A stretch of 19,687 bases of DNA from Candidatus Jordarchaeia archaeon (GTDB lineage Archaea > Asgardarchaeota > Jordiarchaeia > Jordiarchaeales > Jordiarchaeaceae): NCBI GenBank assembly GCA_029856435.1, contig JAHQXB010000174.1, positions 1 to 19,687 of the forward strand. The letters run 5' to 3'. Positions 1 to 19,369 of this stretch are shown in pieces (the first letter of the stretch is position 1; the number at the start of each line of letters is the position of its first letter). The position numbers were made by a program, and so were the translations under genes. Below the pieces are notes generated by a model that worked only from the letters and a program-made list of their open reading frames with translations, searched no databases and was not told the DNA's origin.

Positions 1-759
1 CCTCGGAAGGTACGGGGAGAACGCCGAAGAAGCTAGGGAGAGGCTCAGGAGGGAGTACCAGCCCGCGCTCAGGAGGGTTCTGGACGCCCACCACGCTTGG
101 TACACGACCCCCGGCCTGTGGGAGGAGGGCCTGCACAGGGAGCTCTACAGGGGGAGGTGGAGGATAGAGAACGGCTTTTAGGGACAGCAACCACTTCGAG
201 GGGAAGAGCAAGAGCAGCTCGCTCAAGGTGCGCCTCTACCTCGCAGCCATCGCCCTCGCCCTCTACAACACCTAGCAGCTCGAGAGAACCGGGGAGAACC
301 CCCCGAGAGCAGAGGACATGGCGAAGCACCTCTCCCACACCCTAGAGCATGTGGCCCTCATCTCCCTCAGAGACGCCCTAACAACCCTCGCTCAGACCCT
401 CCGACGCCTCCTCGCGGAGGCAGCGCCGGGAACAGCCACCCTGACTGTGGAGCTGCTCCAAGCAGTCTCGGAGAGCAACCCCCTCCACACGCAGACACTC
501 CAAGCGTTCGCGGCGACGTGGGGAAAGCCACCCCCGCCGCGGAGAAGACCGCCACCTGCGGTGGCGGAGAGGGAGGTGATGGCCCGAGCCGGCCGAAGCC
601 CGAGGAAGACACCCGCCCCAGACGATGGAAGGCCCCAAGGAGGGGCGGAAAGAACACGAAGAAACCGCAGAACCAGAGAGCCACACCCCAAGAAGCAGCG
701 GAGCCGCGGCAATCCCCCAACAGAAGCCAGAAAGAAAAGAAAATAATTTTCAAATACTG
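1..759 (+). mobile_element. Right part of an IS4-superfamily insertion sequence, probably ISH3 family; truncated by the window edge
   Basis: GC-rich block (about 60% by eye on the first line) that switches abruptly to AT-rich at ~750. It ends in ...TTTTCAAATACTG(759), whose reverse complement CAGTATTTGAAAA starts with the CAGTA typical of ISH3-family termini. It contains a DDE transposase remnant. Confidence 0.7.
2..746 (+). pseudogene. DDE transposase C-terminal half, disrupted by a frameshift and a nonsense codon
   Basis: Frame 2 reads ...LYRGRWRIENGF (146-178), the Y-xx-R-W-x-I-E catalytic-Glu signature. After a +1 shift in the T-run at 176-179, frame 3 continues RDSNHFEGKSKSSSLKVRLYLAAIALALYNT, hits TAG at 273-275 (where these transposases usually have the W of 'LYNxW'), then runs in frame into ORF 318..746. 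Confidence 0.8.
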
Positions 760-847
760 ATGTTTGGAGTTGGTTTATTTGCCGATAATGTTAAAAAAGA
801 TAGTTAGTTATTTTTTATTATCGGTTTTGTGTTTTGGAGGTTATATT

Positions 848-1297
848 TTGTCTGAGAGATATCTTAGTGCGCCTAGTAGTAAGGATGTAGAGGCCTTTGA
901 GGCTATGGTACAGAATGTTAGAGAGGATTTGCAGGACGCAGCGAGGAGTGCCGCTGATTCTGTCAGTTCGCTTCTTAGGGCAGGCGATTTTAAGAGGGCC
1001 GCAGATTACGTTTTTGATATGGTTGCGCAGTCCATATTAATAAATCTGCTTGAGCCCCCGAGAAAAGCCATAGAGTTTATTAAGGGGAAAAGGGACCGCT
1101 TTTCTGAGCTTTTGGAGAATCCAATTTTTAAGGCCAGCGAAAAACTTTTGGAATCCTTCGAGAAGGGAAACAAGGAGCTGTTTGCGGGCGCTATGCAGGC
1201 AGTGGAGGAATCAGTGATAGGGAAAACTTCCATAGATTTTAGATACACCATAATGAAGGATTTACACTGCGCCTTTTACAAATATGTCAAATTATAA
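848..1297 (+). CDS. Hypothetical all-alpha protein, 149 aa
   Basis: ORF track gives 764..1297. Start moved to TTG 848 because GGAGGT (836-841) lies 6 nt upstream. Amphipathic helices, weakly TPR-like (AGDFKRAADY). No family recognised. Confidence 0.7.
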   Translation: MSERYLSAPSSKDVEAFEAMVQNVREDLQDAARSAADSVSSLLRAGDFKRAADYVFDMVAQSILINLLEPPRKAIEFIKGKRDRFSELLENPIFKASEKLLESFEKGNKELFAGAMQAVEESVIGKTSIDFRYTIMKDLHCAFYKYVKL

Positions 1298-1372
1298 TGC
1301 TGAGAGATAACTTGTCCTGCCTCAAAATAAAAGTAGCGGCACTGTGTTTGGTAGTGCTTGTGGACTGGTGAT

Positions 1373-2173
1373 TTAGCGTTTGACTAGTCTTAAAATGTTT
1401 TGACCTAGAATAAGTTGCTTTTCTTCGTTGCTTACATTTAAATTTCGAATTTTGTTGACCTCGTACTGTGGATCGCCGTGGGGAATAAATGGCATGTCGC
1501 TTCCAAAAATGATCCGTTCACTGCCTAAGGCCTTTATGGCAATCATAACTTTTTCGGCTGTTCCGCCGGATGTGTCTAAGTAGACGTTATCATATTTCTT
1601 TGCCAACTCTAACGCCTCCTTCTCGAAGGTTCCGCCCAAGTGTGCAATAATAAGTTTTAATCTTGGAAACTGATCAATAATTTCTCTGTAGTATAGGGGA
1701 TTGGAGTTGTCTGTATCATTCTGCCATATTTTTCCGGAGTGGACGAGGACGGGAATATTGAGCTTTTCAGCCTTCTCCCAGATGTGCATGGCTTCATTCG
1801 GCCAGAAATTTTGGTGCACGGCATGAAGCTTTAAGCCCTTGAAGCCTTGCCTTATATGGAATTCTAGAATTTGCCCCGCCTTAGGATCGTGGGGATCCAC
1901 GCAGCAGAAACCCATAAAGGTGTCCGGGAACCTGTCTATCAAACTCTTCACAATGGGCGTTATGTATGGAAAAAATGGCGACACTACTGCTCTTCCAATA
2001 CCGTTTCTGAACATGCGTTCCATAAGGTAGTATCCAAGTCTTTTAACACCAAACTCGTTCCTCAGATAATTTAATGAGTAATAGGCTAGTACCCCTTCCA
2101 AGTTCCCCACAAACCCCAGTCCCTTAGTTCCAGTTCTATTAAAATAAGGATGAATATGAGCATCTATTATCAT
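1373..2173 (-). CDS. Amidohydrolase family protein (amidohydrolase_2-type TIM barrel)
   Basis: MIIDAHIH (HxH), GLKLH, VHSG, AHLGG, YLDTS and FGSDMP motifs. Start placed at the ATG immediately before IIDAH. Confidence 0.92.
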   Translation of the reverse strand: MIIDAHIHPYFNRTGTKGLGFVGNLEGVLAYYSLNYLRNEFGVKRLGYYLMERMFRNGIGRAVVSPFFPYITPIVKSLIDRFPDTFMGFCCVDPHDPKAGQILEFHIRQGFKGLKLHAVHQNFWPNEAMHIWEKAEKLNIPVLVHSGKIWQNDTDNSNPLYYREIIDQFPRLKLIIAHLGGTFEKEALELAKKYDNVYLDTSGGTAEKVMIAIKALGSERIIFGSDMPFIPHGDPQYEVNKIRNLNVSNEEKQLILGQNILRLVKR

Positions 2174-2397
2174 TGAATCATCCCCAACAGGGAACATGGA
2201 GATATGTGAATCAATTCATTTTATTAGTTATAAATTTAAGTAACTAAATCTTAGATTTTTATTGGGAAAAATATTTCGGTGAGAATCTAGACCTCCAAAA
2301 GATTATTTACAATAGTAGAAATTAAACTTATTTTAGAAGGGTAGGATTTGAGTTTTATAGGGTTGTTTCCTGTTCGTGTTAAAAATGGGTTTCCACG

Positions 2398-3303
2398 GTG
2401 AGTTTCTTGAGTTACGCGGAACGCAAAATGGTAAAGTTGAGTAAAGATGTTCTGCAGATTCTCTTTAAGCCTTTGAGCAAAAAGGTGATCCGGAGACTGG
2501 TTTCTGGTTGGGGGTTTGGAATCTTTGAAAATTTAGATATCGACGAAATCATAAATATACTAGATGGACGAGAATTGGTAGTAGCGAAGTTTCTAGAACT
2601 TCTGCTTCTCTACGATATGAATTTGGCTTTAAAATTTGGTTTGTGGTCGGTTTACAGCTATTCAAATTCCATCAGGAACATCGATGTCAAAGACTTGGAA
2701 AATTCTCTTAACGGTATCCTGAAAAAAAACAGTTATAAATCATTTCTCAACATTTATGAAATTTCAAAAAATAAGGAGTATTACATAGTATATTCTTACG
2801 AGGATAAGCCCATGTTAATAGAACAATGGGGTTTTAAGTATAATGTGGTGAATAGACTAGCCCGTGTAAGATCCATTTTAGACGTGGAGAAAAAGACACT
2901 GCTAATAGATGCGGAGTCTGAGAAAGAAGGTGAAAAATTCAAAAGAGCCCTAGAAAAAGCACTAAAAACGAAATTCCAACCTGACACTTTCCCGCCATAT
3001 GTTTTGCAAGAATTTGCGGAAAAAGACACAGTCAAAAAAGTGGCTTTTGCATGCGACTCACAATTTAGCGGAGTGGAGGGAATAAAAAAAATCACATTAG
3101 AGGGGAACAATGTTTTTGGCGCCATAAAGGGATTAAGGGCGAGACAGGATATCGACTTCAGAAAAGTGGGGCCACTTATAGAAGCTGAAACCCCTAAACT
3201 CTACATATCCTCCGAAGGAAAACTAGTGTTTAGAGATCAGAAGACCAAAGACCAAGTCCTAAAGAAATTAAGGGAAGCAACAGAAGCGGAAAAGGAATCA
3301 TAA
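2398..3303 (+). CDS. Hypothetical protein, 301 aa (possible CENP-N/Chl4-like fold; see findings)
   Basis: Long ORF with host-like codon usage, divergent from the amidohydrolase. An alternative start is ATG 2428. Confidence 0.8.
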   Translation: MSFLSYAERKMVKLSKDVLQILFKPLSKKVIRRLVSGWGFGIFENLDIDEIINILDGRELVVAKFLELLLLYDMNLALKFGLWSVYSYSNSIRNIDVKDLENSLNGILKKNSYKSFLNIYEISKNKEYYIVYSYEDKPMLIEQWGFKYNVVNRLARVRSILDVEKKTLLIDAESEKEGEKFKRALEKALKTKFQPDTFPPYVLQEFAEKDTVKKVAFACDSQFSGVEGIKKITLEGNNVFGAIKGLRARQDIDFRKVGPLIEAETPKLYISSEGKLVFRDQKTKDQVLKKLREATEAEKES

Positions 3304-3432
3304 ACACCAATATGACTACAAAATTTTAGAAAAATTATTTTAGGCATATACGAAAAGCTTTCATAGCCGCTAACTATTTATCTAGATGAAAATTAAAGGG
3401 ATGGTCCACGATTGAGCCAAGAAAATTTCCAG

Positions 3433-3831
3433 ATGACTTTAAAGGTGATACCCGAAAAATGTGCGGGCTGCCACATATGTGAGCTTGTTTGCAGTTTGTA
3501 TCATTTTAAAGTAAACAACCCCAAGAAATCAAGAATCAGGGTGCAAACTCTTTTCCCTGAACCTGGAATAAATAAGCCCGTGGTTTGTAGACAGTGTAAG
3601 GAACCAGCATGCATGGAAGCATGTCCTGAGGGGGCTATCACCATTGAGCAGGGAACAGTTAAGCTCAACCCTCAAAAATGTACCGGGTGTAGAAAATGCC
3701 TAGAAGCATGTCCCTTCGAAGCCCTCTTTACGCATTCAGACATTCCTTACCCTTTAAAATGTGATTTGTGCAACGGGGACCCCCAGTGTCTAATATGTCC
3801 AAAAGGAGCTATAGTGTTTGTTCCCCGATAA
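3433..3831 (+). CDS. 4Fe-4S multicluster protein (DmsB/HydN-like), likely AOR partner subunit
   Basis: Four Cys clusters: CAGCHICELVC, CRQCKEPACMEACP, CTGCRKCLEACP, KCDLCNGDPQCLICP. Lies directly upstream of the AOR gene. Start ATG 3433 (or TTG 3412). Confidence 0.92.
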   Translation: MTLKVIPEKCAGCHICELVCSLYHFKVNNPKKSRIRVQTLFPEPGINKPVVCRQCKEPACMEACPEGAITIEQGTVKLNPQKCTGCRKCLEACPFEALFTHSDIPYPLKCDLCNGDPQCLICPKGAIVFVPR

Positions 3832-3888
3832 GAAAGTAGGTCAGGAAGCCGCAGGAACCGGTCTAAAGATTAGGAGGGAAAGGGTAAA

Positions 3889-5733
3889 TTGATGGGTGGA
3901 TATATGAACCGGATTTTAAGGATAGATTTGTCCAAGGAAAAAATTGGCGAAGAAAAGCCGGAGAAGGATTGGTCTATTAAGTACATAGGGGGAAGAGGTT
4001 GGGGCGCCAGAAAAGTTTGGGAGTCGGGTATTGACGTAGACCCCTTGGGTCCAGATAATTTGATGTTCTTTGCTTCCGGCCCTCTCACCGGCCTCCTGAT
4101 TCCCTCTGCTGGGAAAATGACCATAGTTTCCATTTCTCCCGCCACAAGAATCTATGCCGATAGCAGTGTGGGGGGAGCCTTTGGCGCTGAACTTAAACAG
4201 GCGGGTTACGATGCTATCGCACTAAGCGGAGTTTCCAAAAAACCCGTGTACATTATGATTGACGATGGCGATGTGGAAATCAGGGACGCGGAGGAATACT
4301 GGGGGATGGGGGCGCTGGCCACTGAGGAACGGTTAAAGAAGGATATTGGGGATAACGGTATCCATGTGTTATCCATTGGCCCTGCGGGAGAAAAACTGGT
4401 GAAGTTTGCTTGTATAACTTCGGACTATGGTAGGAATGCGGGAAGAACAGGCATGGGGGCGATTATGGGCTCCAAAAAATTGAAAGCCATAGTGGTCAGG
4501 GGATTTAAGGATATACCGGTTGCAGATGTAGATAAGTTTTTGGAAATCGCTTACGATTCGTTCAATTCGATTTATGAGAATGAGTTTCTGGACATTTGGC
4601 AGAGGCAAGGCACACTGCAAGTTATAGCTTGGGCCAATGAGAGGGGGGTTTTGCCCACGAGAAACTTTCAAGAAACTATGTTTGAACATGCTGAGGAGAT
4701 AGGGGGAGATAAAATGGAGGAGGTGAAAACCACTGATAGGGCGTGTTTTGCGTGTCCCATGACCTGCGGAAACTACTGTGTGATCAAGGAAGGGAATACT
4801 AAAGTGGTGGTGGAGGGGCCGGAATATGAGACCGCCGCAATGTTGGGTTCGGCTTGTGGAATCAAAGATCTTAAAACGGTGATTAAAGCCAATAATCTCT
4901 GCGACGACTTGGGAATAGACACAATATCCTCTGGAAATCTAGTTGGCCTACTAATGGAGGCCTATGAGAAGGGAATCCTAACCAAAGAGGACACGGGGGG
5001 AATAGAGCTAAAATTTGGAAACGGCGAGGCGCTGCTCAAAATTCTTGAAATGATTGCCAAGAGGGAGGGGATAGGCGACATAGTTGCGGAGGGAGTGAGG
5101 GCGGTGACAGAAAAGTGGCGGGAAATGAAGCCCTTCGCCATCCAAGCTAAGGGGTTGGAACAGAGCGCTTATGATACGAGGGCCTCTCCAGGAATGGCGC
5201 TTGCTTATGCCACCTGTGATGTGGGGGCGCATCACTCTAGGGCGTGGGTTATTTCCAAGGATTTAGAAATGCAGAACAAGTGGACTGCGGAGGAGAGGGC
5301 CAAACTGGTAATATATCACCAGCACATAAGACCTCTGTTCGACTGTTTGGGAGTTTGCAGATTGGAGTGGATAGAGCTATCAGTGGACGAAAACATCTAC
5401 GCAGACTTCTACACTGCGGTAACCGGAGTCAAAACCACATTGAAGAAGCTTCTTGAACGCTCAGAAGCCATCTACAACCTGACACGCGCCATTAATATAT
5501 TAAAGGGAATTTCAAGGAAGGATGACTATCCCCCAGAGAGATTTTTCTGCGACCCTGTGCCCACTGGTCCACTGAAGGGAAAATTGCTTCACAGGGAAGA
5601 ATACGACAATCTTTTGGACACCTACTATAGGCTTAGGGGATGGGACAGTAGAGGTGTACCGACTGAGCGAACCCTATTACGGCTGGGGCTTAAGGACGTA
5701 GCTCTAAAGCTTAAGAAAAGCGGAAAAATCTAG
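3889..5733 (+). CDS. aor: Tungsten-dependent aldehyde:ferredoxin oxidoreductase family protein
   Basis: GGRG, ELKQAGYD, IGPAGE, AGRTGMGAIMGSKKLKAI, CFACPMTC, EGPEYET, CDDLGIDTIS and DCLGVC motifs; 614 aa. Confidence 0.95.
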   Translation: MMGGYMNRILRIDLSKEKIGEEKPEKDWSIKYIGGRGWGARKVWESGIDVDPLGPDNLMFFASGPLTGLLIPSAGKMTIVSISPATRIYADSSVGGAFGAELKQAGYDAIALSGVSKKPVYIMIDDGDVEIRDAEEYWGMGALATEERLKKDIGDNGIHVLSIGPAGEKLVKFACITSDYGRNAGRTGMGAIMGSKKLKAIVVRGFKDIPVADVDKFLEIAYDSFNSIYENEFLDIWQRQGTLQVIAWANERGVLPTRNFQETMFEHAEEIGGDKMEEVKTTDRACFACPMTCGNYCVIKEGNTKVVVEGPEYETAAMLGSACGIKDLKTVIKANNLCDDLGIDTISSGNLVGLLMEAYEKGILTKEDTGGIELKFGNGEALLKILEMIAKREGIGDIVAEGVRAVTEKWREMKPFAIQAKGLEQSAYDTRASPGMALAYATCDVGAHHSRAWVISKDLEMQNKWTAEERAKLVIYHQHIRPLFDCLGVCRLEWIELSVDENIYADFYTAVTGVKTTLKKLLERSEAIYNLTRAINILKGISRKDDYPPERFFCDPVPTGPLKGKLLHREEYDNLLDTYYRLRGWDSRGVPTERTLLRLGLKDVALKLKKSGKI

Positions 5734-5794
5734 GACGCATCACTAAATCAAAATATGTATCTGCGGAGAAGCTGTTTGTTAGATTAATTATAAA

Positions 5795-5842
5795 TTTATA
5801 TAGTAGATGAGGATAACATATATACACCTAAACTCTGGAGGT
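5795..5842 (+). promoter_or_regulatory. TATA box (TTTATATA, 5795-5802) and Shine-Dalgarno (GGAGGT, 5837-5842) upstream of a small ORF
   Basis: Matches the archaeal TATA consensus. The SD is 6 nt before TTG 5849, the same spacing as at 836/848 and 14376/14388. Confidence 0.6.
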
Positions 5843-5848
5843 TCTTGT

Positions 5849-5977
5849 TTGCCTAAACCGTCCAAGAAGAGAAGAAAAAGGGCCAAAAGAGTTAAGGGTC
5901 GCCCACAGGAAATGGATGAAACAGAGGAACTCCAAGAATATTTGGAGTTAGAAGACGAAGTGTTTGAGGATTGGTGA
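5849..5977 (+). CDS. 42-aa basic/acidic microprotein MPKPSKKRRKRAKRVKGRPQEMDETEELQEYLELEDEVFEDW
   Basis: Translated by hand: TTG 5849 to TGA 5975-5977. Has its own TATA and SD and a strongly non-random charge pattern. Below the ORF-track length cutoff. Confidence 0.7.
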   Translation: MPKPSKKRRKRAKRVKGRPQEMDETEELQEYLELEDEVFEDW

Positions 5978-6129
5978 GTTCTCGTTCTAAATATTAATCA
6001 AACTCATAAATTTAGACTGCAAAAGTGGAGGATAGAGTATATAGTTTTGGTCACCGCCTTTAAAAAAAGGTTCTGAGATAGTTTTTCTGTAAACTATCGC
6101 TTTTTGGTGAGAGGTAACTAAGTTTTTGG

Positions 6130-8085
6130 TTGGCTTTGTTGATAACAATAAGCTTTTATGATGCAGATATAATTTTATATTTTGAGGAAGCGATATCGAA
6201 TTGTTTTGGGTGTCCAGTTTTGGAAAGCGTAGAATGTGAAGAACCAGCTAAAAGCGGGTCTCCTCGCCGTAGCAATTTTGGGATACTTGAAATTCTTGTT
6301 GGCGACGGCAAAACAGGAATATCCATCTATACTGTTGGCGGCGGGAAAACCAATGATATTGACATGTCCACAGGCTTGGTTTTTGCATTGGAGCAGGCTA
6401 TAAGGGAGCATTCTGGCTCCGCCAAGGATGTGTTCTTTGGAGGAATTAATGCTTCTGGCGGAATTGGTTGGTGCGTCAAAGAATTCGAGGTTGCTGGAGA
6501 GCCTCGCGAGTTTTACATTGGAGCTGCACTAATGCCGGGGGCCTCTTACTCTTTGGATATTGATATGCTAGAGCAGAAGAATAAAGGTAAAAGGGAATTT
6601 TTCGTTTTTCTCAAAGATTTCCTGTTACCAAGCATAGTTAAACATCTAAATGATTGTGTTGAAAAATTGAGAGAGGTGGGGGGAGAAGCTACCCTGGATA
6701 CTCTTTTAGGGACTGGCGTCTCAGCCTTCAAGCGAGGTGAAGTGAACCAATTGGTGAAGAGTCCTGAAGAATTGGGCGACGCTTGGAAGGTTTTTTCTGG
6801 AGCCTGTACCAAGGCGAGTAAAGAGCAGGGGCTAATTCTGAGGGCTCTTTATGTAGGTAAGAAGGGATTTGTTGATAGTAGGCGTATATGCTCGGAAATG
6901 ATATCGGAATATTTGGAGGACTTGTACTTAGCTCAAAACACCAAATTGGATGGGGCGGAGTGGAGAATTCAGAGAACTTTGGGTCCACTTAAAACTAGCC
7001 CAGATAAGTCTTATGATTCTTGGATTAAACACATCATCTTCACTGGGGCTGAGGGACTCTTCAGTATTAATCCCTCCTGTCCACTTCTTCTGGCTGATAC
7101 GAGAAGCTATTTCGGCATGTGGGAAAATGGGTTAAGAGAGAAGCTTAGAGAGTGGGGAACGAGAAGGAAGGATTTTCTAATTAAAATGAGGTATGGAGCG
7201 AATTTTTTGGATAGTGTGGGTTCAAAGTTTGGATCAGTTTCTTATAAAGAGGTTTCAGAGAGGGAGGAGGAAATCCTGGAATTTCTCTCTTTGAGCATGA
7301 TGGACAAAATATCTGAAGAGTTTCCCCTCACGGCCCTGACTTATGATTTTAAGAAGAAAAGTGTTATAAAAAATGAAATGTTGGAGGTCATAAAAGAGGT
7401 TATCCCAGCGGTGGAGCAAGAGGTTATAGCAGAGCTCTTTGAGAAAGTTAAGGAGGAGGTTTTTGATGTAGAGAAGTTCACAAAGGAGGTTTTCAGTAGG
7501 AAGAAAACCGAAACCATTAGGAAAAAGATAGATGATTGGACAAATAAGCTCTATCGAAGCCTCCAAGAAGCTCTGTACAAGAAGAATATTGTGTTCTCAC
7601 TATTTCCAGAGCCTTTAGAACAGTTCAGAGCAAAAATCGCAGATTTTATCAACGAGAAGGCCATCGCCTGTCTGAAGGACGATGTCGCCTCAGCAATTTT
7701 GCTGGCTTTAAAACTTTTGGAACAGGAAATCAAAGACCCCGAGGCTTTGGTATACCTAGATTTTGTGAAAGAACTGGTTAAAGGGTTTGTGGGAAAAGAG
7801 CTGAGCGCAATATACCCCACTTTGGGGTACCTTCTGAAGGAAGCACAGGTTTTGGATAAGTTGGACGACGCTTTTAAAATCATCATGAAGGATACGGGAT
7901 ACGAAGATGTCAAAATTCTTGAGAATGTTAGCACCGAAATTAAAAGGGTGAGTGAGAGGGAAATCGCGGTAAACAGTAGTGTGGAAAAGGTTTTGGAAGC
8001 AAAGTCTATCATACAAGAGGCTATAAGGAAAATGTTGGCTCGAGGGGAGGGATTAGGAGGAATACTTTTGGGTGATGAGGTTTGA
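6130..8085 (+). CDS. Hypothetical protein, 651 aa; N-terminal longin-like domain plus long helical region
   Basis: The segment GILEILVGDGKTGISIY...DIDMSTGLVFALEQAIREHSG follows the beta-beta-alpha opening of longin-like domains. The remainder is Glu/Lys-rich and helical. Start uncertain. Confidence 0.75.
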   Translation: MALLITISFYDADIILYFEEAISNCFGCPVLESVECEEPAKSGSPRRSNFGILEILVGDGKTGISIYTVGGGKTNDIDMSTGLVFALEQAIREHSGSAKDVFFGGINASGGIGWCVKEFEVAGEPREFYIGAALMPGASYSLDIDMLEQKNKGKREFFVFLKDFLLPSIVKHLNDCVEKLREVGGEATLDTLLGTGVSAFKRGEVNQLVKSPEELGDAWKVFSGACTKASKEQGLILRALYVGKKGFVDSRRICSEMISEYLEDLYLAQNTKLDGAEWRIQRTLGPLKTSPDKSYDSWIKHIIFTGAEGLFSINPSCPLLLADTRSYFGMWENGLREKLREWGTRRKDFLIKMRYGANFLDSVGSKFGSVSYKEVSEREEEILEFLSLSMMDKISEEFPLTALTYDFKKKSVIKNEMLEVIKEVIPAVEQEVIAELFEKVKEEVFDVEKFTKEVFSRKKTETIRKKIDDWTNKLYRSLQEALYKKNIVFSLFPEPLEQFRAKIADFINEKAIACLKDDVASAILLALKLLEQEIKDPEALVYLDFVKELVKGFVGKELSAIYPTLGYLLKEAQVLDKLDDAFKIIMKDTGYEDVKILENVSTEIKRVSEREIAVNSSVEKVLEAKSIIQEAIRKMLARGEGLGGILLGDEV

Positions 8086-9554
8086 AAATACCAGTACCTG
8101 CAGTTGAATTGTACAAAAATTACCAGAAGGCCATCAGCGAGATAAATCAAGCCTGGACCTCTTTTAACTTAGTTGAAGCTTTAACAAGAGAATTGAAAGG
8201 TATTAACATGATGACCTGTAAGGATTTGAGAGATGAGATAACTAGTATTTACGATGAGTTAATGAAGAATTTGAGTTCCATCAAAAAATCCCAAGACACC
8301 AAGGAATCGAAAAAAACCCAAAGTAGGCTGGAAAAGCTGGAAAAGAAACTGGATGTGGAGCAAAATTCCATTGATTCTGTGGGCAAACTAAAAAAGTATG
8401 TTGAGCAGAGGAAAAACTGGGTCTGGAACAAAATTATGAATGAGGAGCAAAAAAAGGTTAATTTCAATCTCAGCGAGACGATAGCTAATTTTAGCTTAAT
8501 CCCACCAGTGAGTGTAATGCTAGGCATAGGAGTTAAGGACGCATACCAGAATATCTGTGACATAGCCAAGAGTGAACGAGAGACCATAGAGAAAATTATC
8601 GAGTTCATAAAAGACGAGAAACCAGCATTAGAGGAACAGTTAAGGCAACTAGTCAAAAAACTAGAAATTTTCCGGGAACTGGAGCAAAAAATGGAAAAGG
8701 TTGTTAAGAATTATAAAAAATTTGAAAAGATTCTTGAAACCCCACACCCGCTTTTTCAGCTGGATAAAGTTATTCTGGAGGAGGTTTGTCAAGAGTTTAC
8801 CGTTGATCCCTTTTTCAAGAGTGGTAGCGAGTTAGTGGAAACCTACATGGACTTGGCATTCTGGGATGATGATAAAACTCCAGCGGTTAAAAAACTGATA
8901 AATTATGTGTTTCTGCAGTCTCTTGGGAGGAAAATTCCATCAAAGACTATGGTTGAGCGATTCAAAGAGATTCTAAAGAGGGGCGGAGAAGAATTTGACA
9001 TTGAAAAAGCCGCCAAAAAAGTTTTGGAAGAGTATATGGCTCAGTTTAACCTTTATTGGCAGGTACAGATGATGAGCGTAGAATTGGCACTCTTGGCGCC
9101 TGAACTGTGGAAGAAGTATAAAAACAAGGAGGATAGAACCAAAGAGTATGAATCCATTAAATTGGACATTAACAATATAGAGAAAGACCTTCCGCAATTT
9201 GTTGTCGAAGATGGTTTACCAACAATGGAGTTAGGCACAATAAGTATGGAATTTTTTGGTGACCAGAAAAAAGCGGTAGCAGAGTGTTTCGGTGAAGGAG
9301 CTTACAAATTTATAGAAAAGGAGGGGGGCAACGTGGAGGTGAAACTCACATTTCCTTGGCTTAAAAATTTGGATCCCACCTCCAATTCTCTGAGAGCGTG
9401 GCTGAGAGCCTATACTTGGAATAAATTCATGAAAGAAAAGGGAAGAAAATATCAAGCTTACCAGAAAATAATGAGCCTTTACGGTTCTGGGACAGAAGCA
9501 GAGTTTAAGAGGTTTATGGAGTACATGAAGGAAGTTATTCATGACGGTAAATGA
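8082..9554 (+). CDS. Hypothetical helical/coiled-coil protein, 490 aa
   Basis: TTGA start/stop overlap with the upstream gene and an SD-like GGTGATGAGG before it. Heptad-like stretches (RLEKLEKKLDVE, LEEQLRQLVKKLEIFRELEQKME). Confidence 0.8.
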   Translation: MKIPVPAVELYKNYQKAISEINQAWTSFNLVEALTRELKGINMMTCKDLRDEITSIYDELMKNLSSIKKSQDTKESKKTQSRLEKLEKKLDVEQNSIDSVGKLKKYVEQRKNWVWNKIMNEEQKKVNFNLSETIANFSLIPPVSVMLGIGVKDAYQNICDIAKSERETIEKIIEFIKDEKPALEEQLRQLVKKLEIFRELEQKMEKVVKNYKKFEKILETPHPLFQLDKVILEEVCQEFTVDPFFKSGSELVETYMDLAFWDDDKTPAVKKLINYVFLQSLGRKIPSKTMVERFKEILKRGGEEFDIEKAAKKVLEEYMAQFNLYWQVQMMSVELALLAPELWKKYKNKEDRTKEYESIKLDINNIEKDLPQFVVEDGLPTMELGTISMEFFGDQKKAVAECFGEGAYKFIEKEGGNVEVKLTFPWLKNLDPTSNSLRAWLRAYTWNKFMKEKGRKYQAYQKIMSLYGSGTEAEFKRFMEYMKEVIHDGK

Positions 9555-10208
9555 TTAAGGGTCTAAGCCCAATATTTTTCTCAAAATTTTTTCCAGCTCA
9601 TTCCTATCGAGAAGTCCTACAATTTCACCAACCTTTTTCTTCTCATCAAGAATATAAACGGTGGGCAATTTTTTGATTCTACTTTTGAAAACCTCTTTTA
9701 TTTTACCAGAGAATTTCATTTTAACGATAGAGTCCCCTTCGCATAATTGCATTTTCTCAACTGTTTCCCTTAATGTTCTTTCAAATTCTACACATTTTTG
9801 GGCACCTGACGTAAAAAACAGGAAGAGCAGTTTTCTGTGAATCTTCTCAAAGCTGAGCAAATTATACATACACTCTCTACAGATGTTCTCGGGATCGAAT
9901 AGACTGGTAGCCAACCTGTACAATTCACTAAACACTTCCTCAAAGACTAATTTCCCTCTCACCCTAATCGGCAAACCCGTGGAGCCACAACGGATTAGTC
10001 CAGAATTATCAGCATATAGAATATCATAACAGGCATTCTCATCATTTGTAGGCAAATCTATTTCAACATGGACAGGTAAAACAAGGGATAATGGGTGAAG
10101 CTCACTCCTCCCAAGGCAAAAATATTCCTCCTTATATTTAAAAAGGCAGGGACAAATATGATAAACACTTTTAACAACCTTTTCCTCACCCATAAGGAAA
10201 GCCGCCAT
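9555..10208 (-). CDS. Cys-rich N-terminal domain fused to a C-terminal thioredoxin-like domain with a degenerate CxxC
   Basis: The C-terminal ~95 aa fit the Trx pattern: FLFFTSGAQKC (AxxC at the CxxC position), IKKLPTVYI (cis-Pro site), IVG..DRNELEKIL. ORF track starts at GTG 10364, but a TATA-like box near 10247-10258 favours ATG 10208 or 10193. Confidence 0.65.
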   Translation of the reverse strand: MAAFLMGEEKVVKSVYHICPCLFKYKEEYFCLGRSELHPLSLVLPVHVEIDLPTNDENACYDILYADNSGLIRCGSTGLPIRVRGKLVFEEVFSELYRLATSLFDPENICRECMYNLLSFEKIHRKLLFLFFTSGAQKCVEFERTLRETVEKMQLCEGDSIVKMKFSGKIKEVFKSRIKKLPTVYILDEKKKVGEIVGLLDRNELEKILRKILGLDP

Positions 10209-10511
10209 TAAAAGCTTAGAAGCATGTTTATGGTGTCCTTGAGGATTTAAATATAAAAAATTTCTGATAAAACCGTTCCCCCAAAAATTGCAAGTGTGGA
10301 GTAAAAATTTTTCGATTTTAAGTAGCTTCAATTTTAAATTTACGTTTTTGCTTCTTTTTTCCACTTAAAGCGGAAAGAACCAATCCTATCAAAAAATAAA
10401 ATAAAAGGTTAGAGGGGAATAAACACAAACACGGTAAATTTAACATTATCATATAGTTTTAACTCTATCGGCGGGAGGTCTCCCTGTGAGGGGGGATGAG
10501 AGCCCATAGTC

Positions 10512-10518
10512 TTATAAA
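10512..10518 (+). promoter_or_regulatory. TATA box (TTATAAA) just inside the element's left end
   Basis: Archaeal TATA-like motif positioned to drive transcription into the element. Activity not demonstrated. Confidence 0.45.
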
Positions 10519-10672
10519 GGCATAGTTGTATTAGAATGGCGATGTAGAATTGTTCGGTTTCGCCTCAAAAAAGGGGTGTTTATAGGGCTTCTTTCACGAT
10601 TTGGAGCCTTATTAGGGAGATGGAACCGAATAAATCTGCATCACCAAATATGAAGCTAGAAAAGTTTTTATA

Positions 10673-10700
10673 TCATACCAACCAAATTGGGTTGGTATGA
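10673..10700. repeat. Perfect 11-bp inverted repeat with 6-nt loop, overlapping the LAGLIDADG start codon
   Basis: TCATACCAACC (10673-10683) / AAATTG / GGTTGGTATGA (10690-10700). The ATG is at 10697-10699. Confidence 0.9.
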
Positions 10701-11098
10701 ACGATACTGATTTAGCATATATTGCAGGATTTTTTGATGGTGAAGGTAGCATATTTATTTCCAAGTCGAAAAAGCAATACTTTCTTACTGTAAGCATTAG
10801 CAATACGAATCTACCTGTATTAGAGAGTATAAGAGCTATGGGTGGAAATATATCGAAAAGCCCAGACAATCGTGAGAATCATTCTCAGCTTTTTAGGCTG
10901 AGATTATATTGTAATGAGGCAAAGAAGTTCTTAGAAAAGATACTACCTTACCTCAGAATCAAGAAAGAGCAAGCAAAATTAGCAATAGAGTTTCAGTCTA
11001 AAATGGAGTTGGGAAAACTCACCATTCCAAAGGAAGAACAGGAGAAATATAGAATTCAAATCAACATATTTAACAAAAAGAGACGAGAAAGCTGGTAG
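10697..11098 (+). CDS. Single-motif LAGLIDADG homing endonuclease (I-CreI-like, predicted homodimer), 133 aa
   Basis: LAYIAGFFDGEGSI motif with the acidic catalytic residue present, beta-saddle strands, and FLEKILPYLRIKKEQAKL matching the I-CreI-type helix/Lys pattern. Confidence 0.92.
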   Translation: MNDTDLAYIAGFFDGEGSIFISKSKKQYFLTVSISNTNLPVLESIRAMGGNISKSPDNRENHSQLFRLRLYCNEAKKFLEKILPYLRIKKEQAKLAIEFQSKMELGKLTIPKEEQEKYRIQINIFNKKRRESW

Positions 11099-11225
11099 GA
11101 TAGTGATAAAGGTGAACCCAAGAGGAACATCAAAAGAACATATGGAAATAGAGGGTAGAGATTATAGAGCCTCACTAAACATATTGAAGAGAGGCTTATC
11201 GGGGCCGGCCCTATGCGCCTGCTGA
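11088..11225 (+). pseudogene. tnpB: 3' remnant of tnpB (IS200/IS605 RNA-guided nuclease)
   Basis: Hand translation in frame 3: KAGRIVIKVNPRGTSKEHMEIEGRDYRASLNILKRGLSGP. This carries the TnpB 'V.P..TS' and RuvC-III 'RD.nAs.NIl' motifs, has no Zn-ribbon, and has no start or RuvC-I/II upstream. Confidence 0.8.
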
Positions 11226-11327
11226 GATGGAACCCCTACTGGTAGAGATACCGGCAAACTCCATTATTGAAGCAGGAAGCCCCTTCCAATAGGGAGGGGC
11301 AGTTCACTAAGCTTAAAGAGTATATAA
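11090..11327 (+). ncRNA. Putative omegaRNA (reRNA)-like scaffold, with guide-equivalent flank 11308-11327
   Basis: Inferred from position: TnpB guide RNAs overlap the tnpB 3' end and right end, and take their guide from the adjacent flank. GC-rich stem-forming sequence lies at 11200-11300. Boundaries approximate; expression unknown. Confidence 0.45.
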
Positions 11328-11398
11328 TAGGGAAAAACCAAAAACATAATTAGTGCAGAAAACAAAATAGGTATTAAGTTAGATTGGGATGTGATAAA

Positions 11399-11608
11399 TT
11401 GTCTGATAAAGCAAGCGACCAACTAATAAAATTTCTCTCGAAAAAAGGCGACTACTACGTTGAACTCGCCCAACAGCATCTTCACGACAATGAACCTGAA
11501 AAGGCGAAGGAGCTGCTCGAGAGCGCAGTCAACTTCTACAGCAAAGCCGGATTAAAGGATAAGATTGAAGAAACAAGGAAAAGAATAGAAGCCATAGGAA
11601 AAAAATAG
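11399..11608 (+). CDS. Small helical-hairpin (TPR-like) hypothetical protein, 69 aa
   Basis: GDYYVELAQQH...PEKAKELLESAVNFYSKAG resembles a single TPR/SNAP-like repeat. Start TTG 11399 (ORF track: 11384). Confidence 0.65.
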   Translation: MSDKASDQLIKFLSKKGDYYVELAQQHLHDNEPEKAKELLESAVNFYSKAGLKDKIEETRKRIEAIGKK

Positions 11609-11699
11609 TAGCCAAATGTTAAATTTCTTGTTCGTTTGGATATAATTACAGAGTAGCCTCCAGAAATTTAGCCTTTATTTTAAAAAGGGTGGAAGTCTG

Positions 11700-12743
11700 C
11701 TATTGGAATCCGACGCCGTCAATTTTGGCTCCGCATTTGGGGCACTTTGAATCCTTAATTTTATTTGCTAAAATGCTGAAGCCGTATCTGCGAATCAACA
11801 TTTCCCCACAATTGTAGCAGAAGGTATTTGCTCCCTCTTCGCCTGGAATGTTGCCCTCATAAACATATCTTAAACCCTCCTCCAATCCGATCCTCCTAGC
11901 CTTACGTAGGGTTTCTGGAGGAGTGGGGGGTTTCCCAGTTAATTTATAGGCGGGGTAGAAAGCTGTAACGTGCCAAGGTATCTCTTCGCCCACGCCTTTA
12001 ATGAAGCGCGCAATCTGTCTCAGTTCATCGTCGGAATCGTTGAGACCGGGGATTATGAGCGTGGCTATCTCTATCCAAATCCCCAACTCTTTGTAAAGTT
12101 TGATTGATTCAAGCAGCGGCTCCAATCTGGCGCCGCATATTTTGCGATAGAAATCATCGCTGAAACTTTTCAAATCAATGTTTGCAGCGTCCAAGTAGGG
12201 AGCAATGGTTCTAAGCGCCTCTTCACCAATGTATCCATTGGTGACAAAAATATTTTTCAATCCTTCCTTGCTTGAGATTTTAGCGATGTCATAGGCGTAT
12301 TCGAAAAATATTGTGGGTTCAGTATAAGTATAGGAGATGCTCCTGCACCCCTGTGCTATGGCGTCTCTGACAATTTCTGCAGGAGTTAAGTTCTCTCCCA
12401 CTATCATACGTCTATCTCTGGGCATCTGAGAGATTTCGTAGTTTTGACAGTGTTCACACCTAAAGTTGCAACCTGGTGTAGCAATAGAGTAGGTATCTGT
12501 TCCGGGAAGGAAATGGTATAGGGGCTTCTTCTCCACTGGGTCCACATTTATGGAAACCACTTTTCCGTAGACCAGCGAATACAGGGTACCGCCTCTATTT
12601 TCTCTCACGGCGCAGATTCCAGTTTTTCCATCTGCAATAATGCATTCGTGGCGGCAAAGGTGGCACTGCACCCTGTTATCTTCCAACTTTTCATAAAACA
12701 TAGCTTCTCTCGTATTAATCCCATCCAAATATGTACACGTCAC
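11700..12743 (-). CDS. amrS: AmmeMemoRadiSam system radical SAM enzyme
   Basis: VQCHLCRHEC...GICAVREN, DPVEKKPLYHFLPG, radical SAM motif CNFRCEHCQN, SYTYTEP and C-terminal CYNC/CPKC. True start may be ATG 12701. Confidence 0.92.
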   Translation of the reverse strand: MTCTYLDGINTREAMFYEKLEDNRVQCHLCRHECIIADGKTGICAVRENRGGTLYSLVYGKVVSINVDPVEKKPLYHFLPGTDTYSIATPGCNFRCEHCQNYEISQMPRDRRMIVGENLTPAEIVRDAIAQGCRSISYTYTEPTIFFEYAYDIAKISSKEGLKNIFVTNGYIGEEALRTIAPYLDAANIDLKSFSDDFYRKICGARLEPLLESIKLYKELGIWIEIATLIIPGLNDSDDELRQIARFIKGVGEEIPWHVTAFYPAYKLTGKPPTPPETLRKARRIGLEEGLRYVYEGNIPGEEGANTFCYNCGEMLIRRYGFSILANKIKDSKCPKCGAKIDGVGFQ

Positions 12744-12752
12744 CTTTAAAAT

Positions 12753-12827
12753 TAAGTTTATCTCGCATTAAATAGTTTCGAGTCCTAATTCACTAAACCT
12801 CACATGTACTAAATAAGTTATCTCGCA
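12753..12827. repeat. Direct repeat TAAGT(T)TATCTCGCA x2 in the amrS/acd divergent intergenic region
   Basis: Copies at 12753-12767 and 12814-12827. The shared core TTATCTCGCA recurs exactly 60 bp apart. Confidence 0.7.
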
Positions 12828-12882
12828 GGATAGTGCAAAAGGTTAAATCCTAGGAAGAAACCGTTTTGAAAAGATAGACTGG

Positions 12883-14307
12883 TTGACGGTGAGAATTTTG
12901 AGGGAAGACTCGAGCCTTGAGACATTCTTTAGTCCCAAGTCTGTGGCTATAATAGGCGCTAGTGAAAAGCTCAGATTTGGATACTTTGTAACAAAGAGTA
13001 TTCTTGCCCGCACCGATATGAGAGCTTATCCAGTACACATTAGTGCCGATAAGGTTATGGGTGTTAAGGCTTACAAATCTGTGAAGGATATTCCAGAAGT
13101 CGTGGATTTAGCAATTTTTCTTGTTCCAAGCGAAGCCGCCCCAACTGCTATACGGGAATGCGCTGAGAAGGGAATAAAGCATGTGATAGTTCTCTCCGCA
13201 GGCTTCGCCGAGGTAGACGAAGTTGGCAAACAGAGACAAGAAGAAATTGTGAGGGTAGCGAGGGAAAACGGAATCCGGGTCATAGGTCCAAACTGTGTTG
13301 GTGTAACCAACGTGTCGAACCGATTTACCACAGCTGAAATTGATATAGATAGTTTGAAGGAGGGAAGCGTAGCCTTCATAGCCCAGTCGGGTATATTTGG
13401 AACTGTGATAATAGATTGGGCCGCCGCCAATGAGTTTGGACTGAGCAAAATCGTAACGCTGGGTAACAAGTGTGATGTTGACGAAGTAGACCTCCTAAAC
13501 TATTTGGAAAAAGACGATAAAACCAGAGTTATCTGCTTGTACTTGGAAGGAATAAAAAAGGGGAGGGGAAGAGAATTTATTGAAACATTTAAACGAGTAT
13601 CCAAAAATAAGCCGATTCTAGTCCTCAAAAGTGGAAGAACCCAAACAGGTGCCAGAGCGGTGAGGAGCCATACGGGAAGCCTCGCCGGCGATGATCGAAT
13701 ATTTGACGCGGTTCTCAAACAGACCGGGGCACTGAGAGTGGACAGCGTTGAAGAACTCCTTGACTTTGCAAAAGTCTTGGCCACTCAGCCACTTCCCAAA
13801 AGTGAAGGAATCGCAATAATAACTAATTCAGGCTCACTGGCTGCCATGACCTGCGACGAACTAGAAAAATTGCACATGGAATTGACTAGCTTTGAGCCTC
13901 AAACAACTGAAAAGATGAGAAAGATTGCTCCCTACTGGACATCCATCAAAAACCCTGTAGATATTGGTCCAGCTATGTTGCAGATCGGATCCCAAATATT
14001 GGAAGCAGTTCTTGAGGATAAAAACGTGGGGTGCTTACTAATAATTTCCTCACCTCCCGGAATACTGGTTAAGAAGAATGGTATGGGTTTAGATTTGGTG
14101 CCCTTCTACAAGGTTTACAAAAGAATAATTGATAAACACCGGGAAAAAGCCATCATCTTCTCAAGCTTCGGGGACTACGACACGGTTCAGGCAGCCAAAG
14201 AAGTTTTCGAAAAATCGGGAATACCAGTAGTAAGCTCTGTTCAGAATGCGGCAAGAGCAATAGCCGCCCTCTACCAATACAAGAAATATTTAGAAAAGAG
14301 TAAATAG
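12883..14307 (+). CDS. acdA: NDP-forming acyl-CoA synthetase (acetate--CoA ligase type), alpha subunit
   Basis: FFSPKSVAIIGAS CoA-binding domain, RVIGPNCVG, AQSG, LGNKCDVDE, LYLEG, phospho-His motif SHTGSLAG, and TNSG. No ATP-grasp domain. Substrate specificity unknown. Confidence 0.88.
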   Translation: MTVRILREDSSLETFFSPKSVAIIGASEKLRFGYFVTKSILARTDMRAYPVHISADKVMGVKAYKSVKDIPEVVDLAIFLVPSEAAPTAIRECAEKGIKHVIVLSAGFAEVDEVGKQRQEEIVRVARENGIRVIGPNCVGVTNVSNRFTTAEIDIDSLKEGSVAFIAQSGIFGTVIIDWAAANEFGLSKIVTLGNKCDVDEVDLLNYLEKDDKTRVICLYLEGIKKGRGREFIETFKRVSKNKPILVLKSGRTQTGARAVRSHTGSLAGDDRIFDAVLKQTGALRVDSVEELLDFAKVLATQPLPKSEGIAIITNSGSLAAMTCDELEKLHMELTSFEPQTTEKMRKIAPYWTSIKNPVDIGPAMLQIGSQILEAVLEDKNVGCLLIISSPPGILVKKNGMGLDLVPFYKVYKRIIDKHREKAIIFSSFGDYDTVQAAKEVFEKSGIPVVSSVQNAARAIAALYQYKKYLEKSK

Positions 14308-14387
14308 CCAAAAGAGACTAATCATTTTCAAATAACTGTTTACTCATTTATTTACAAAATGGGAATTAATGTTTTGGAGAGATTAGT

Positions 14388-14696
14388 ATGGTTAAAGAAG
14401 CAATTGTCATGGAGCCCAAAGACAATGTAGCAACCGTCATAGAAGACGTAGAACAGGGAACAAGTATCCAAGTAAATATAGGTGGAAAAACAAAGAGTAT
14501 TAAAGTAAAGCAGAAGATTCCATTCGGCCACAAGTTCGCAATAATAAAGATACCCAAAGGAGAGAAGGTAATTAAATATGGTGAAGTAATAGGGTTGGCC
14601 AGTCAACCTATCGATGAGGGAGAACACGTCCACGTCCACAATGTGGAAAGCGTCTACTCCAAAGAGTTGGTGCAGGAAAGGAGGGAAAAGAAATGA
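14388..14696 (+). CDS. UxaA family SAF-domain small subunit (altronate dehydratase / SuyA-like)
   Basis: DNVAT, IPFGHKFA, GEKVIKYGEVIG and GEHVHVHNVES motifs. SD GGAGAG 6 nt before the ATG. Confidence 0.9.
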   Translation: MVKEAIVMEPKDNVATVIEDVEQGTSIQVNIGGKTKSIKVKQKIPFGHKFAIIKIPKGEKVIKYGEVIGLASQPIDEGEHVHVHNVESVYSKELVQERREKK

Positions 14697-15853
14697 GTTT
14701 CCAAGGATTCAGAAGGGACGACGGAACAGTTGGAACAAGAAACAACATTCTAGTAATTTCAACCGTGGTTTGCGCCAACCAAGTCGCATTAAACGTAGCC
14801 AACAATGTAGAAGACGCAGTCTCCATCACGCACCCCATGGGATGCGGGCACCTAGGGGCAGACTTCATGCGGGTTTTGTCCACCCTTGTAGGTTTTGGAA
14901 AAAACCCCAACGTCGCAGCCGTATTAGTGGTGGGGCTAGGATGCGAAAACATGTCAGCTAAACTGGTCGCCGACGAGATTGCAAAGTCCAAGAAGCCAGT
15001 ACAGTACATAAACATCCAAGACGAGGGAGGAACCCTAAAAGCCACCAAAAGGGGAACAGAAATACTGTTGGCCCTCTCTGAGGAGGCTTCCGAGTATACC
15101 CGAGAAAAATGTGACTTAAGCGAGCTAATACTGGGCTTGGAGTGCGGTGGATCCGACGCCACCTCAGGACTAGTGGCAAACCCTGCAGTGGGAGTAGCAG
15201 CAGACATGGTGGTGAAAGCCGGGGGAACAGTTATTCTGCCAGAAGCCACGGAGTGGATAGGAGCCGAACACCTCCTGGCAAGAAGGGCAGTAAACGAGGA
15301 TGTTAAAAATAAAATCTATGCCACAGTGGACAGGTACATAAACAGGGTTCTCTCCATGGGCATCGATCCTCGGGGTTCACAACCGACTCCGGGAAACATT
15401 GCCGGCGGTATAACTACCATAGAGGAGAAATCACTGGGAAACATTTGCAAGGCAGGGTACTCAGCCGTCCAAGGAGTATTGAACTATGCAGAGAAACCTC
15501 CCGGAAAAGGGTTGTATCTTATGGACGAACCGGGACTGGATGTTGAATCAATTACTGGCCTGGCGGCTGCGGGGTCGCAGATAATAACTTTTACCACTGG
15601 CTTGGGTACCCCAGCAGGAAGCCCCATAGCTCCGGTAATCAAAATAACTGGCAACCACCGCACATTTGAGAAAATGAGTGATAACATAGATATCGATGTG
15701 AGCAGCGTTTTGGAAGGCAAGGAAAACCTGAAACAGGCGGGTGAGAGAATTTTCAAAGTGATTCTGGAAGTAGCCTCAGGAAAAAGAACAAAAGCCGAAA
15801 CACTTAAAAATCGGGAATTCGCCATCTACAGAGCCTGGCAATACATGGTCTAA
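14693..15853 (+). CDS. UxaA family dehydratase/lyase large subunit (altronate or galactarate dehydratase / SuyB-like)
   Basis: GFRRDDGTVGTRN, HPMGCG, VVGLGCE, ECGGSDATSG..ANP, GNIAGGITTIEEKSLG and FTTGLG motifs. ATGA overlap with the small subunit. Confidence 0.92.
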   Translation: MSFQGFRRDDGTVGTRNNILVISTVVCANQVALNVANNVEDAVSITHPMGCGHLGADFMRVLSTLVGFGKNPNVAAVLVVGLGCENMSAKLVADEIAKSKKPVQYINIQDEGGTLKATKRGTEILLALSEEASEYTREKCDLSELILGLECGGSDATSGLVANPAVGVAADMVVKAGGTVILPEATEWIGAEHLLARRAVNEDVKNKIYATVDRYINRVLSMGIDPRGSQPTPGNIAGGITTIEEKSLGNICKAGYSAVQGVLNYAEKPPGKGLYLMDEPGLDVESITGLAAAGSQIITFTTGLGTPAGSPIAPVIKITGNHRTFEKMSDNIDIDVSSVLEGKENLKQAGERIFKVILEVASGKRTKAETLKNREFAIYRAWQYMV

Positions 15854-15897
15854 AAACATTTTAAAGAAAGAAAATAGAGGGAAGGGATTGGTTGGGC

Positions 15898-17145: not shown

Positions 17146-17300
17146 ACAGAATATTTCTCACTAAATTTTACAGGTTCTATTTTTTGTGGATATTACCCTT
17201 TTGCACTTCAGATGAGTGAAGATTTATAAAAAAGTTGTTATTCCCTTATTGGGAAGCGTTTTAGCTTTTGGAGATAAATGCATTTATAAGTTTGTTGGTT

Positions 17301-18299: not shown

Positions 18300-18529
18300 A
18301 AAACCAACTATTTTTCGAGTCTCAATGAAGTTAGAAAAGATATAAAATATTCCAAGATACAGATACATAAAAATTTGCCACCTTACTTGTAGATTATTCA
18401 CCTCTGACTCCTATGGAAGCATGCAAGTTTACTTGGTCTTCGCTTTTGGATAAATCAGGGAACGAGTCCAACAATCGTCCCTTCTGAGCATGGTTGATAT
18501 ATTCTCCAACTCCTCCTATCATAGGTTCC

Positions 18530-18563
18530 ACTCTATGTAGAAAATCACAGAATTACATAGAGT
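18530..18563. repeat. Perfect 10-bp inverted repeat with 14-nt spacer at the 3' end of the tnpB pseudogene
   Basis: ACTCTATGTA (18530-18539) / TACATAGAGT (18554-18563). Confidence 0.75.
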
Positions 18564-19290: not shown

Positions 19291-19369
19291 AATTATACTC
19301 GTTTTCGCCGTCGGCGCCAGTAAGAACCCGGGCCTTCCCATATTTGTGGGCGCCACCTTTTTTCTGGTG

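Follow-up and report, generated by a model that had tools for sequence, protein, structure and literature searches.

The window considered here is a stretch of 19,687 nucleotides from an assembly deposited as Candidatus Jordarchaeia archaeon (GenBank GCA_029856435.1, contig JAHQXB010000174.1, positions 1 to 19,687 of the forward strand). Our subject is the gene at its positions 2398-3303, which encodes a conserved, previously unannotated protein of a Freyarchaeial (Asgard) archaeon. An earlier note made from the letters alone, the original prediction, had taken the product for an orphan protein with a series of motifs resembling the kinetochore protein CENP-N/Chl4, and had proposed an archaeal homologue of an inner-kinetochore protein or a relative of RdgC. 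The features of the gene are given below in window coordinates; model residues are those of a predicted structure of the 291-aa form of the protein, residue 1 of which is amino acid (aa) 11 of the open reading frame (ORF).

2398..3303, plus strand: coding sequence of a 301-aa protein, GTG start, TAA stop at 3301-3303 (ORF list and translation)
2428..2637, plus strand: N-terminal four-helix domain, model residues 1-70, ORF aa 11-80 (secondary structure of the model)
2638..2973, plus strand: predicted curved beta-sheet 'globular' domain with two helices and a net charge of +5, model residues 71-182
2860..2967, plus strand: weak match to the Pfam RdgC model, positions 122-157 of that model (13.8 bits, E 0.036, 36 residues)
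2974..3237, plus strand: predicted C-terminal alpha/beta domain, model residues 183-270, the best-conserved part of the family
3061..3174, plus strand: family signature in the C-terminal domain, E-x-SG-x-x-G ... I-T-L-E-G-x-x-V-x-x-G ... L-x-x-R-Q-E/D ... G-P (alignments)
3238..3300, plus strand: long C-terminal helix rich in lysine and glutamate, model residues 271-291 (secondary structure of the model)

The ORF is a real gene under purifying selection: congeneric orthologues start in the same frame, with MSFLSYAEH..., codon alignments with four congeners run through all 301 codons, and the ratio of nonsynonymous to synonymous substitution rates (dN/dS) is 0.11-0.29. The shared start and the full-length codon alignment also support the GTG initiation codon. 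The motifs from which the original prediction was built, namely LVSGWGF with W38, LLLLY...LWSVYSY with W83, IDVKDLENSLNGIL (aa 95-108) and ITLEGNNVFGAIKGL...ID (aa 232-253), are all present in the translation as quoted, and the beta-rich middle that it described corresponds to strands predicted across model residues 73-162. These motifs, chosen by eye, have no statistical backing; the last of them coincides with the region of a weak match to the CENP-N model, described below, and is included in the family signature at 3061-3174.

A word-indexed search returned 17 close relatives, the named ones being Freyarchaeota or Jordarchaeia, and orthologues are 52-93% identical to the window protein. An exhaustive profile search among 1.84 billion representative proteins retrieved 29 clusters at E <= 1e-3 and no more, nearly all of them 260-340 aa long (typically about 290 aa). 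Besides the Frey- and Jordarchaeial lineages, the named members come from Odinarchaeia, Heimdallarchaeota, Kariarchaeaceae, Hodarchaeales, Helarchaeota and 'Promethearchaeota', and every one is labelled Asgard with a single exception. That record (P0026, locus L053, G123:C217) bears the NCBI label 'Candidatus Deferrimicrobium sp.', a bacterium, yet matches at 100% identity the gene in a genome assigned by GTDB to the Asgard phylum, and it is probably mislabelled or mis-binned. The gene was found in 109 of the 400 Asgard genomes scanned, always with one match each; it is present in nearly all genomes of some 15 families and undetected or all but undetected in a few large ones (0 of 19 genomes in family f14, 0 of 14 in f19 and 1 of 135 in f20). 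The genome to which the window belongs (3.54 Mb, 97.8% complete) has one copy, and no paralogue of 2398-3303 was found in it. The family, whose taxonomic spread had been proposed as a check, is confined to Asgard archaea, apart from the one doubtful bacterial record. As to the description of the protein as an orphan, it holds with respect to family databases: Pfam, NCBIfam, PADLOC and PHROGs gave nothing significant on the window protein and 35-75 relatives, and a Pfam domain was found in none of the 22 clusters scanned (individually or as alignment members), the RdgC domain included. It does not hold in the wider sense, since homologues occur across Asgard archaea. A match to 'Dark_CARD' (E 0.016) was discarded, being located in the beta-rich domain rather than the helical one and absent from the rest of the family.

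A first AlphaFold2 model, made from an alignment of 16 close sequences, was poor, with a predicted local distance difference test (pLDDT) of 67. The second, made from a 35-sequence alignment, has a pLDDT of 92 and a predicted template-modelling score of 0.86, the five models ranging from 88.8 to 92. In this model the middle of the protein is a curved beta-sheet with helices on one face, as in TBP-like folds, and it is followed by an alpha/beta domain, which is the arrangement of globular and dimerisation domains characteristic of the fold shared by RexA, RdgC and Iml3-Chl4. Residues 71-182 are equivalent to the CENP-L/N homology domain and to the TBP-like half of RdgC, and residues 183-270 to the dimerisation domain of CENP-L/N, Iml3/Chl4, RdgC and RexA. 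The four-helix N-terminal domain aligns solely with the N-terminal (pyrin-type) domain of CENP-N/Chl4. The predicted succession of helical, LN-homology and C-terminal dimerisation domains is that of CENP-N/Chl4.

The best Foldseek matches of the poor first model were already CENP-N, Chl4, Iml3, CENP-L and RdgC. With the second, all 26 matches to the PDB at E <= 1.5e-4 are CENP-N/Chl4, CENP-L/Iml3 or RdgC, the next having an E-value of 2.9e-3. The best is the CENP-N chain 7pkn_N (E 8.6e-8), of whose 318 residues the alignment covers 309 columns, followed by RdgC 2owl_A (E 4.8e-7) and CENP-L 7pkn_L (E 6.7e-7, template-modelling score 0.53); RexA 8twq_B is matched weakly (E 4.5e-3, probability 0.69). 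A comparison with 48,161 representative chains by VIA-align, which is independent of Foldseek, placed the same families on top, as did a second VIA-align search; the scores of the first are the following (root mean square deviation, rmsd, where given):

CENP-L: 12.8, 208 residues aligned, rmsd 3.6
Iml3: 11.4
CENP-N N-terminal fragment 6eqt_A: 11.3, 189 of 207 residues aligned, from model residue 1
Chl4: 11.3
RdgC: 11.1, 202 residues aligned, rmsd 5.2
two further CENP-N chains: 10.8 and 10.4
TBP: 7.7, 76 residues aligned

A clear gap separates the CENP-N/CENP-L/RdgC group from the next fold, TBP, and no other family competes with it. The alignments with CENP-L and RdgC begin at model residues 57-65, and only those with CENP-N/Chl4 begin at residue 1, which is why we take the domain order to be that of CENP-N. 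The two-domain core of the model is most like CENP-L. The proposal of an archaeal CENP-N/L homologue or RdgC-like relative is thus supported at the level of predicted structure, these families filling the top ranks; the modelling and Foldseek comparison that had been suggested as a check recovered CENP-N, Chl4, Iml3 and RdgC and returned no stronger match to an unrelated family. Together with the distribution, the model supports the view of a new Asgard-wide, single-copy family with the RdgC and CENP-L/N clamp fold and the domain order of CENP-N. We infer homology to CENP-L/N and RdgC from the predicted fold, the domain order and the size, not from sequence statistics.

Conservation peaks in the C-terminal domain, where G215, G218, G226, G232, R239 and G248 (model numbering) are at least 92% conserved, R239 reaching 99%, and V229, L236, E/D241 and P249 are likewise strongly conserved. 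The family is basic: its median isoelectric point is 9.3, 92% of members lie above pH 7, and in the window protein the globular domain carries the net +5 listed above.

We surveyed the gene neighbourhood at 60 loci from 17 GTDB families, in which ORFs were called anew. Most neighbours are lineage-specific (pyruvate:ferredoxin oxidoreductase, a KaiC-like ATPase, a subtilase, an Rpb5-type subunit and others). An orthologous small GTPase of the Ras family (Pfam Ras, 9.7e-53) is encoded directly upstream of the family gene in seven GTDB families, among which are genomes of Hel, Odin and Hod type, divergently in f15, f17, f26 and f27, and in the same direction, with gaps of a few tens of bases, in f11, f12 and f32. 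The representative is the following:

L016:7733-8287, plus strand: adjacent GTPase (equivalents at L015, L017, L024-L026, L028, L047, L048, L050, L053, L058-L060 and L062)

Ras-family genes make up roughly 0.7-1.5% of genes in five genomes, as estimated from 13-80 matches per genome. In a tree built from the 14 adjacent GTPases together with 41 further Ras-family domains taken from the same genomes, the adjacent ones form two supported subclades in one region; the adjacency label requires 3 changes, against 12.5 expected, a value reached in none of 500 shuffles. An adjacent GTPase is lacking in roughly half of the families with the gene, that of the window's own genome among them. In the window's genus it is not adjacent, and the nearest GTPase of the own genome is only loosely attached to the adjacent group in the tree. 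A pseudo-GTPase, CENP-M, is found in the human constitutive centromere-associated network (CCAN), where it binds close to the dimerisation domains of CENP-LN. The GTPase synteny strikingly recalls this position of CENP-M, though purely by analogy.

Two further genes adjoin the GTPase and family gene at the Odin- and Hel-type loci, an E2F/DP-type winged-helix protein (L016:8341-8784, plus strand, also in L015 and L017; PF02319, 6e-9) and a PDCD5-like double-stranded-DNA-binding protein (L016:8790-9164, minus strand, also in L015 and L017; PF01984, 3e-9). At Heimdall-type loci the gene just upstream (L019:5716-6330, plus strand, also in L020 and L032) joins an Rpb5 C-terminal domain (3.5e-28) to an N-terminal Mrr/restriction-endonuclease-like domain, an extended form of RNA polymerase subunit H.

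The reading that we favour, and hold to be probable though well short of certain, is that the protein belongs to the RexA/RdgC/Iml3-Chl4 (CENP-L/N) superfamily and is a self-pairing, non-specific DNA clamp, often with a dedicated GTPase. RdgC, RexA and Iml3-Chl4 dimerise through a sheet that spans the interface, and basic residues of the inner face contact DNA (PMC11077077). As the gene is single-copy in every genome that carries it, a homodimer is the most likely form. The Asgard protein would pair with itself through its conserved C-terminal domain, forming an anti-parallel sheet across the interface as these proteins do, and the homodimer would make a basic arch or ring around one DNA duplex with no sequence specificity, acting as an Asgard clamp associated with the chromosome. 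In many lineages of the phylum a dedicated small GTPase of the Ras family, the product of a neighbouring gene, is its probable partner.

Several results weigh against this assignment. The structure is a predicted model, and the signals at sequence level fall short. On the window protein the Pfam RdgC model (PF04381) scores 13.8 bits, under its gathering cut-off of 25 bits. Pfam CENP-N (PF05238) has no match at E <= 10 in the own genome, window protein included, and Pfam CENP-L (PF13092) has none there either. A profile search of PDB sequences retrieved no CENP-N, CENP-L or RdgC. The hhalign comparison of the 75-sequence family alignment with RdgC is not significant (probability 0.6%, E 0.09), the RdgC alignment being shallow, with 14 sequences from E. 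coli and plasmid genes at >= 85% identity. Moreover, the presumed DNA-binding domain has few conserved basic positions, and in the window the neighbours are metabolic genes (amidohydrolase, ferredoxin, aldehyde:ferredoxin oxidoreductase), with no GTPase adjoining.

The weak signals nevertheless have some structure. In a six-frame search of the whole own genome, the single match of the Pfam RdgC model is this ORF, the counterpart of 2860-2967 is also matched in two congeneric genomes, and the regions paired by hhalign are colinear (family 144-242 with RdgC 123-214). One of 75 family members matches Pfam CENP-N, at E 0.055, and across the 400 genomes positions 333-395 of the 410 of that model fall weakly on the family's conserved C-terminal motif in two orthologues that belong to a single genus. 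By our own estimate, about 0.003 such on-target matches are expected by chance, and we regard these matches, from a single lineage, as suggestive. The 31 weak Pfam CENP-L matches in the 400 genomes include none on the family gene, and the seven inspected loci where they recur encode unrelated proteins; canonical RdgC was found above cut-off in none of the genomes. Recurring matches to the N-terminal part of CENP-N in f20 genomes (L124-L126) are on AbrB/PhoU-like regulators and RdgC matches in f31 genomes (L140-L143) on Hel308-type helicases, and both, like the CENP-L matches, were rejected as noise; matches to YoeB, eL8 and GntR in phmmer and profile searches of PDB sequences are at chance level. 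Sub-threshold Pfam matches to CENP-N and RdgC in Asgard genomes can be spurious, and such mining calls for caution.

If the protein is a clamp, its descent may be read in two ways. It is possible, though on the unlikely side, that it descends directly within the archaea from the ancestor of CENP-L and CENP-N, the pair having arisen by duplication and vertical inheritance, with CENP-N keeping the N-terminal helical domain. The three-domain order equal to that of CENP-N, the alignment over 309 columns with the 318-residue 7pkn_N, and that of the CENP-N N-terminal fragment from residue 1 would all be expected from such descent, although small helical domains align easily. The family occurs in Heimdall, Kari and Hod lineages, and a homodimeric singleton ancestor has already been postulated (10.1101/2022.01.06.475204). 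The match of the CENP-N C-terminal region to the motif in two orthologues, so improbable by chance, points the same way, but both matches come from a single genus and no sequence signal to CENP-L was seen in 400 genomes; furthermore, the margin in Z over RdgC amounts to only about 2.5, on a predicted model, and the Foldseek E-values of CENP-N, RdgC and CENP-L lie within one order of magnitude. The fuller version, which sees in the Asgard family the archaeal survivor of the self-pairing DNA clamp whose duplication gave CENP-L and CENP-N, so that clamp and GTPase-like partner predate eukaryotes, is rather unlikely in our judgement. The other reading, to which we give little credence, is of an RdgC-type ring dimer of the nucleoid that restrains RecA/RadA-type recombination, has no role in segregation and is possibly of bacterial origin, the likeness to CENP-L/N reflecting the common superfamily. 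At the sequence level the window protein itself gives a single hint, and that one points to RdgC. The RdgC alignments cover both core domains in full (202-205 aa), the protein is single-copy like the RdgC homodimer, and RdgC-like proteins have been reported in Halobacteria and Bacillus (PMC11390915). Yet the weak RdgC signal is limited to one genus, RdgC has no N-terminal helical domain, none of 400 Asgard genomes has a canonical RdgC above cut-off, and the family amounts to 29 clusters whose named members are Asgard (one probably mislabelled), with the RdgC Pfam domain in none of the 22 scanned. The protein may be a forerunner, in direct line, of the kinetochore pair, or else a branch that runs parallel to RdgC.

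Two further explanations dispense with the clamp. The protein may not bind DNA at all and may instead serve the neighbouring Ras-family GTPase as adaptor, effector or regulator, its C-terminal glycine loops and invariant arginine forming a GTPase-binding or -activating surface. That seven Asgard families keep the gene beside one Ras subfamily, in two gene orientations, would fit this well, as would the strongest conservation being C-terminal (R239, 99%) rather than in the presumed DNA-binding sheet, and TBP-like domains also occur in adaptor and coatomer appendages (PMC6601020). However, all strong structural matches are DNA clamps, the family is basic, and around half of the gene-carrying families, own genome included, have no adjacent GTPase; GTPase binding is in any case compatible with a clamp, since CENP-M docks on the CENP-LN dimerisation domains. 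We consider this explanation improbable. Finally, convergence or a structure-prediction artefact as the source of the resemblance, with an unrelated true function, is very hard to believe: the sequence comparisons are not significant and the first, shallow-alignment model was poor (pLDDT 67), but even that model put the same three families on top, the good one was consistent in all five runs, and the match extends over more than 200 residues and two domains in the same order, other folds following only after a clear gap. No support was obtained for a role in defence or one like that of RexA: PADLOC gave no matches, the gene is single-copy and near-universal within whole families, and synteny is conserved.

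The surroundings of the gene in the window include the following:

1373-2197, minus strand: amidohydrolase gene, divergent (Pfam)
2198..2397, no strand: AT-rich intergenic region shared with the divergent amidohydrolase gene (read from the sequence)
2353-2359: TATA-like TTTTATA, 39 nt before the start codon (read from the sequence)

The TTTTATA element may serve as the promoter, judging from its sequence and position. The gene is flanked on one side by the amidohydrolase gene and on the other by a ferredoxin and aldehyde:ferredoxin oxidoreductase (AFOR) pair (Pfam), and in the loci fetched from other lineages none of the three is kept beside it. No tRNA or Rfam match was found in the window. 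Neither Pfam nor NCBIfam gave a significant match for two large plus-strand ORFs with overlapping stops, 6130-8085 and 8082-9554 (651 and 490 aa); in a congeneric genome (L013), counterparts of both again lie downstream of the family gene. A small ORF at 10697-11098, plus strand, encodes a LAGLIDADG homing endonuclease (PF14528, 2.8e-8).

The origin of the kinetochore is an open question, and a 2025 review describes chromosome segregation in Asgard archaea as essentially unknown (PMC12188315). From the structure of the human CCAN, Pesenti et al. proposed that CENP-LN derives from a homodimeric, DNA-binding, RdgC-like singleton (10.1101/2022.01.06.475204), and Tromer et al. found in Asgard genomes neither a kinetochore nor any relatives of CENP-L/N by sequence (PMC6601020). 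Our literature search found no publication describing the family, and the main texts of two recent structure-based surveys of Asgard proteomes make no mention of CENP, kinetochore, centromere or RdgC. The singleton hypothesis predicts just such a protein, Asgard-wide and single-copy, which combines the domain order of CENP-N with a CENP-L-like core; on the strength of the model, the protein is a candidate for the single-gene, self-pairing ancestor, and the hypothesis becomes testable at the bench, with the GTPase synteny as a second, independent handle. Were it the archaeal ancestor of CENP-L/N, part of the inner kinetochore would have been on Asgard chromosomes before eukaryotes; were it merely an RdgC-type nucleoid protein, it would still represent a new and widespread chromosome-associated Asgard family.

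Set beside known systems, the Asgard protein differs in the following ways. The CENP-L/Iml3 subunit of the CCAN has no structured N-terminal helical domain of the kind predicted in the Asgard protein, and its Pfam model (PF13092) matches neither the family nor the own genome, nor the family gene in any of the 400 Asgard genomes. CENP-L pairs with its paralogue CENP-N in an obligate heterodimer, whereas there is one family member per genome and no paralogue, in the own genome as in the 109 positive ones, and no other kinetochore parts were detected in the organism. As for CENP-N/Chl4 (PF05238), the weak matches are confined to the C-terminal motif of two orthologues, with none on the window protein; CENP-N reads the CENP-A nucleosome, and the Asgard protein is not known to do anything comparable. 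RdgC (PF04381) is proteobacterial and plasmid-borne, whereas the family is confined to Asgard archaea. RdgC has no N-terminal helical domain, and its alignments begin at model residue 64-65, with a higher rmsd (4.7-5.2). Phage lambda RexA gives only the weak Foldseek match, and no PADLOC or PHROG match falls on the Asgard protein. RdgC-like proteins of Halobacteria and Bacillus, compared here by description, are encoded next to histone genes and carry extra small terminal domains (PMC11390915), whereas no histone or membrane-protein gene lies beside 2398-3303. What the Asgard family has in common with RexA and with these RdgC-like proteins is the scaffold of the superfamily, a globular domain combined with a dimerisation domain (PMC11077077).
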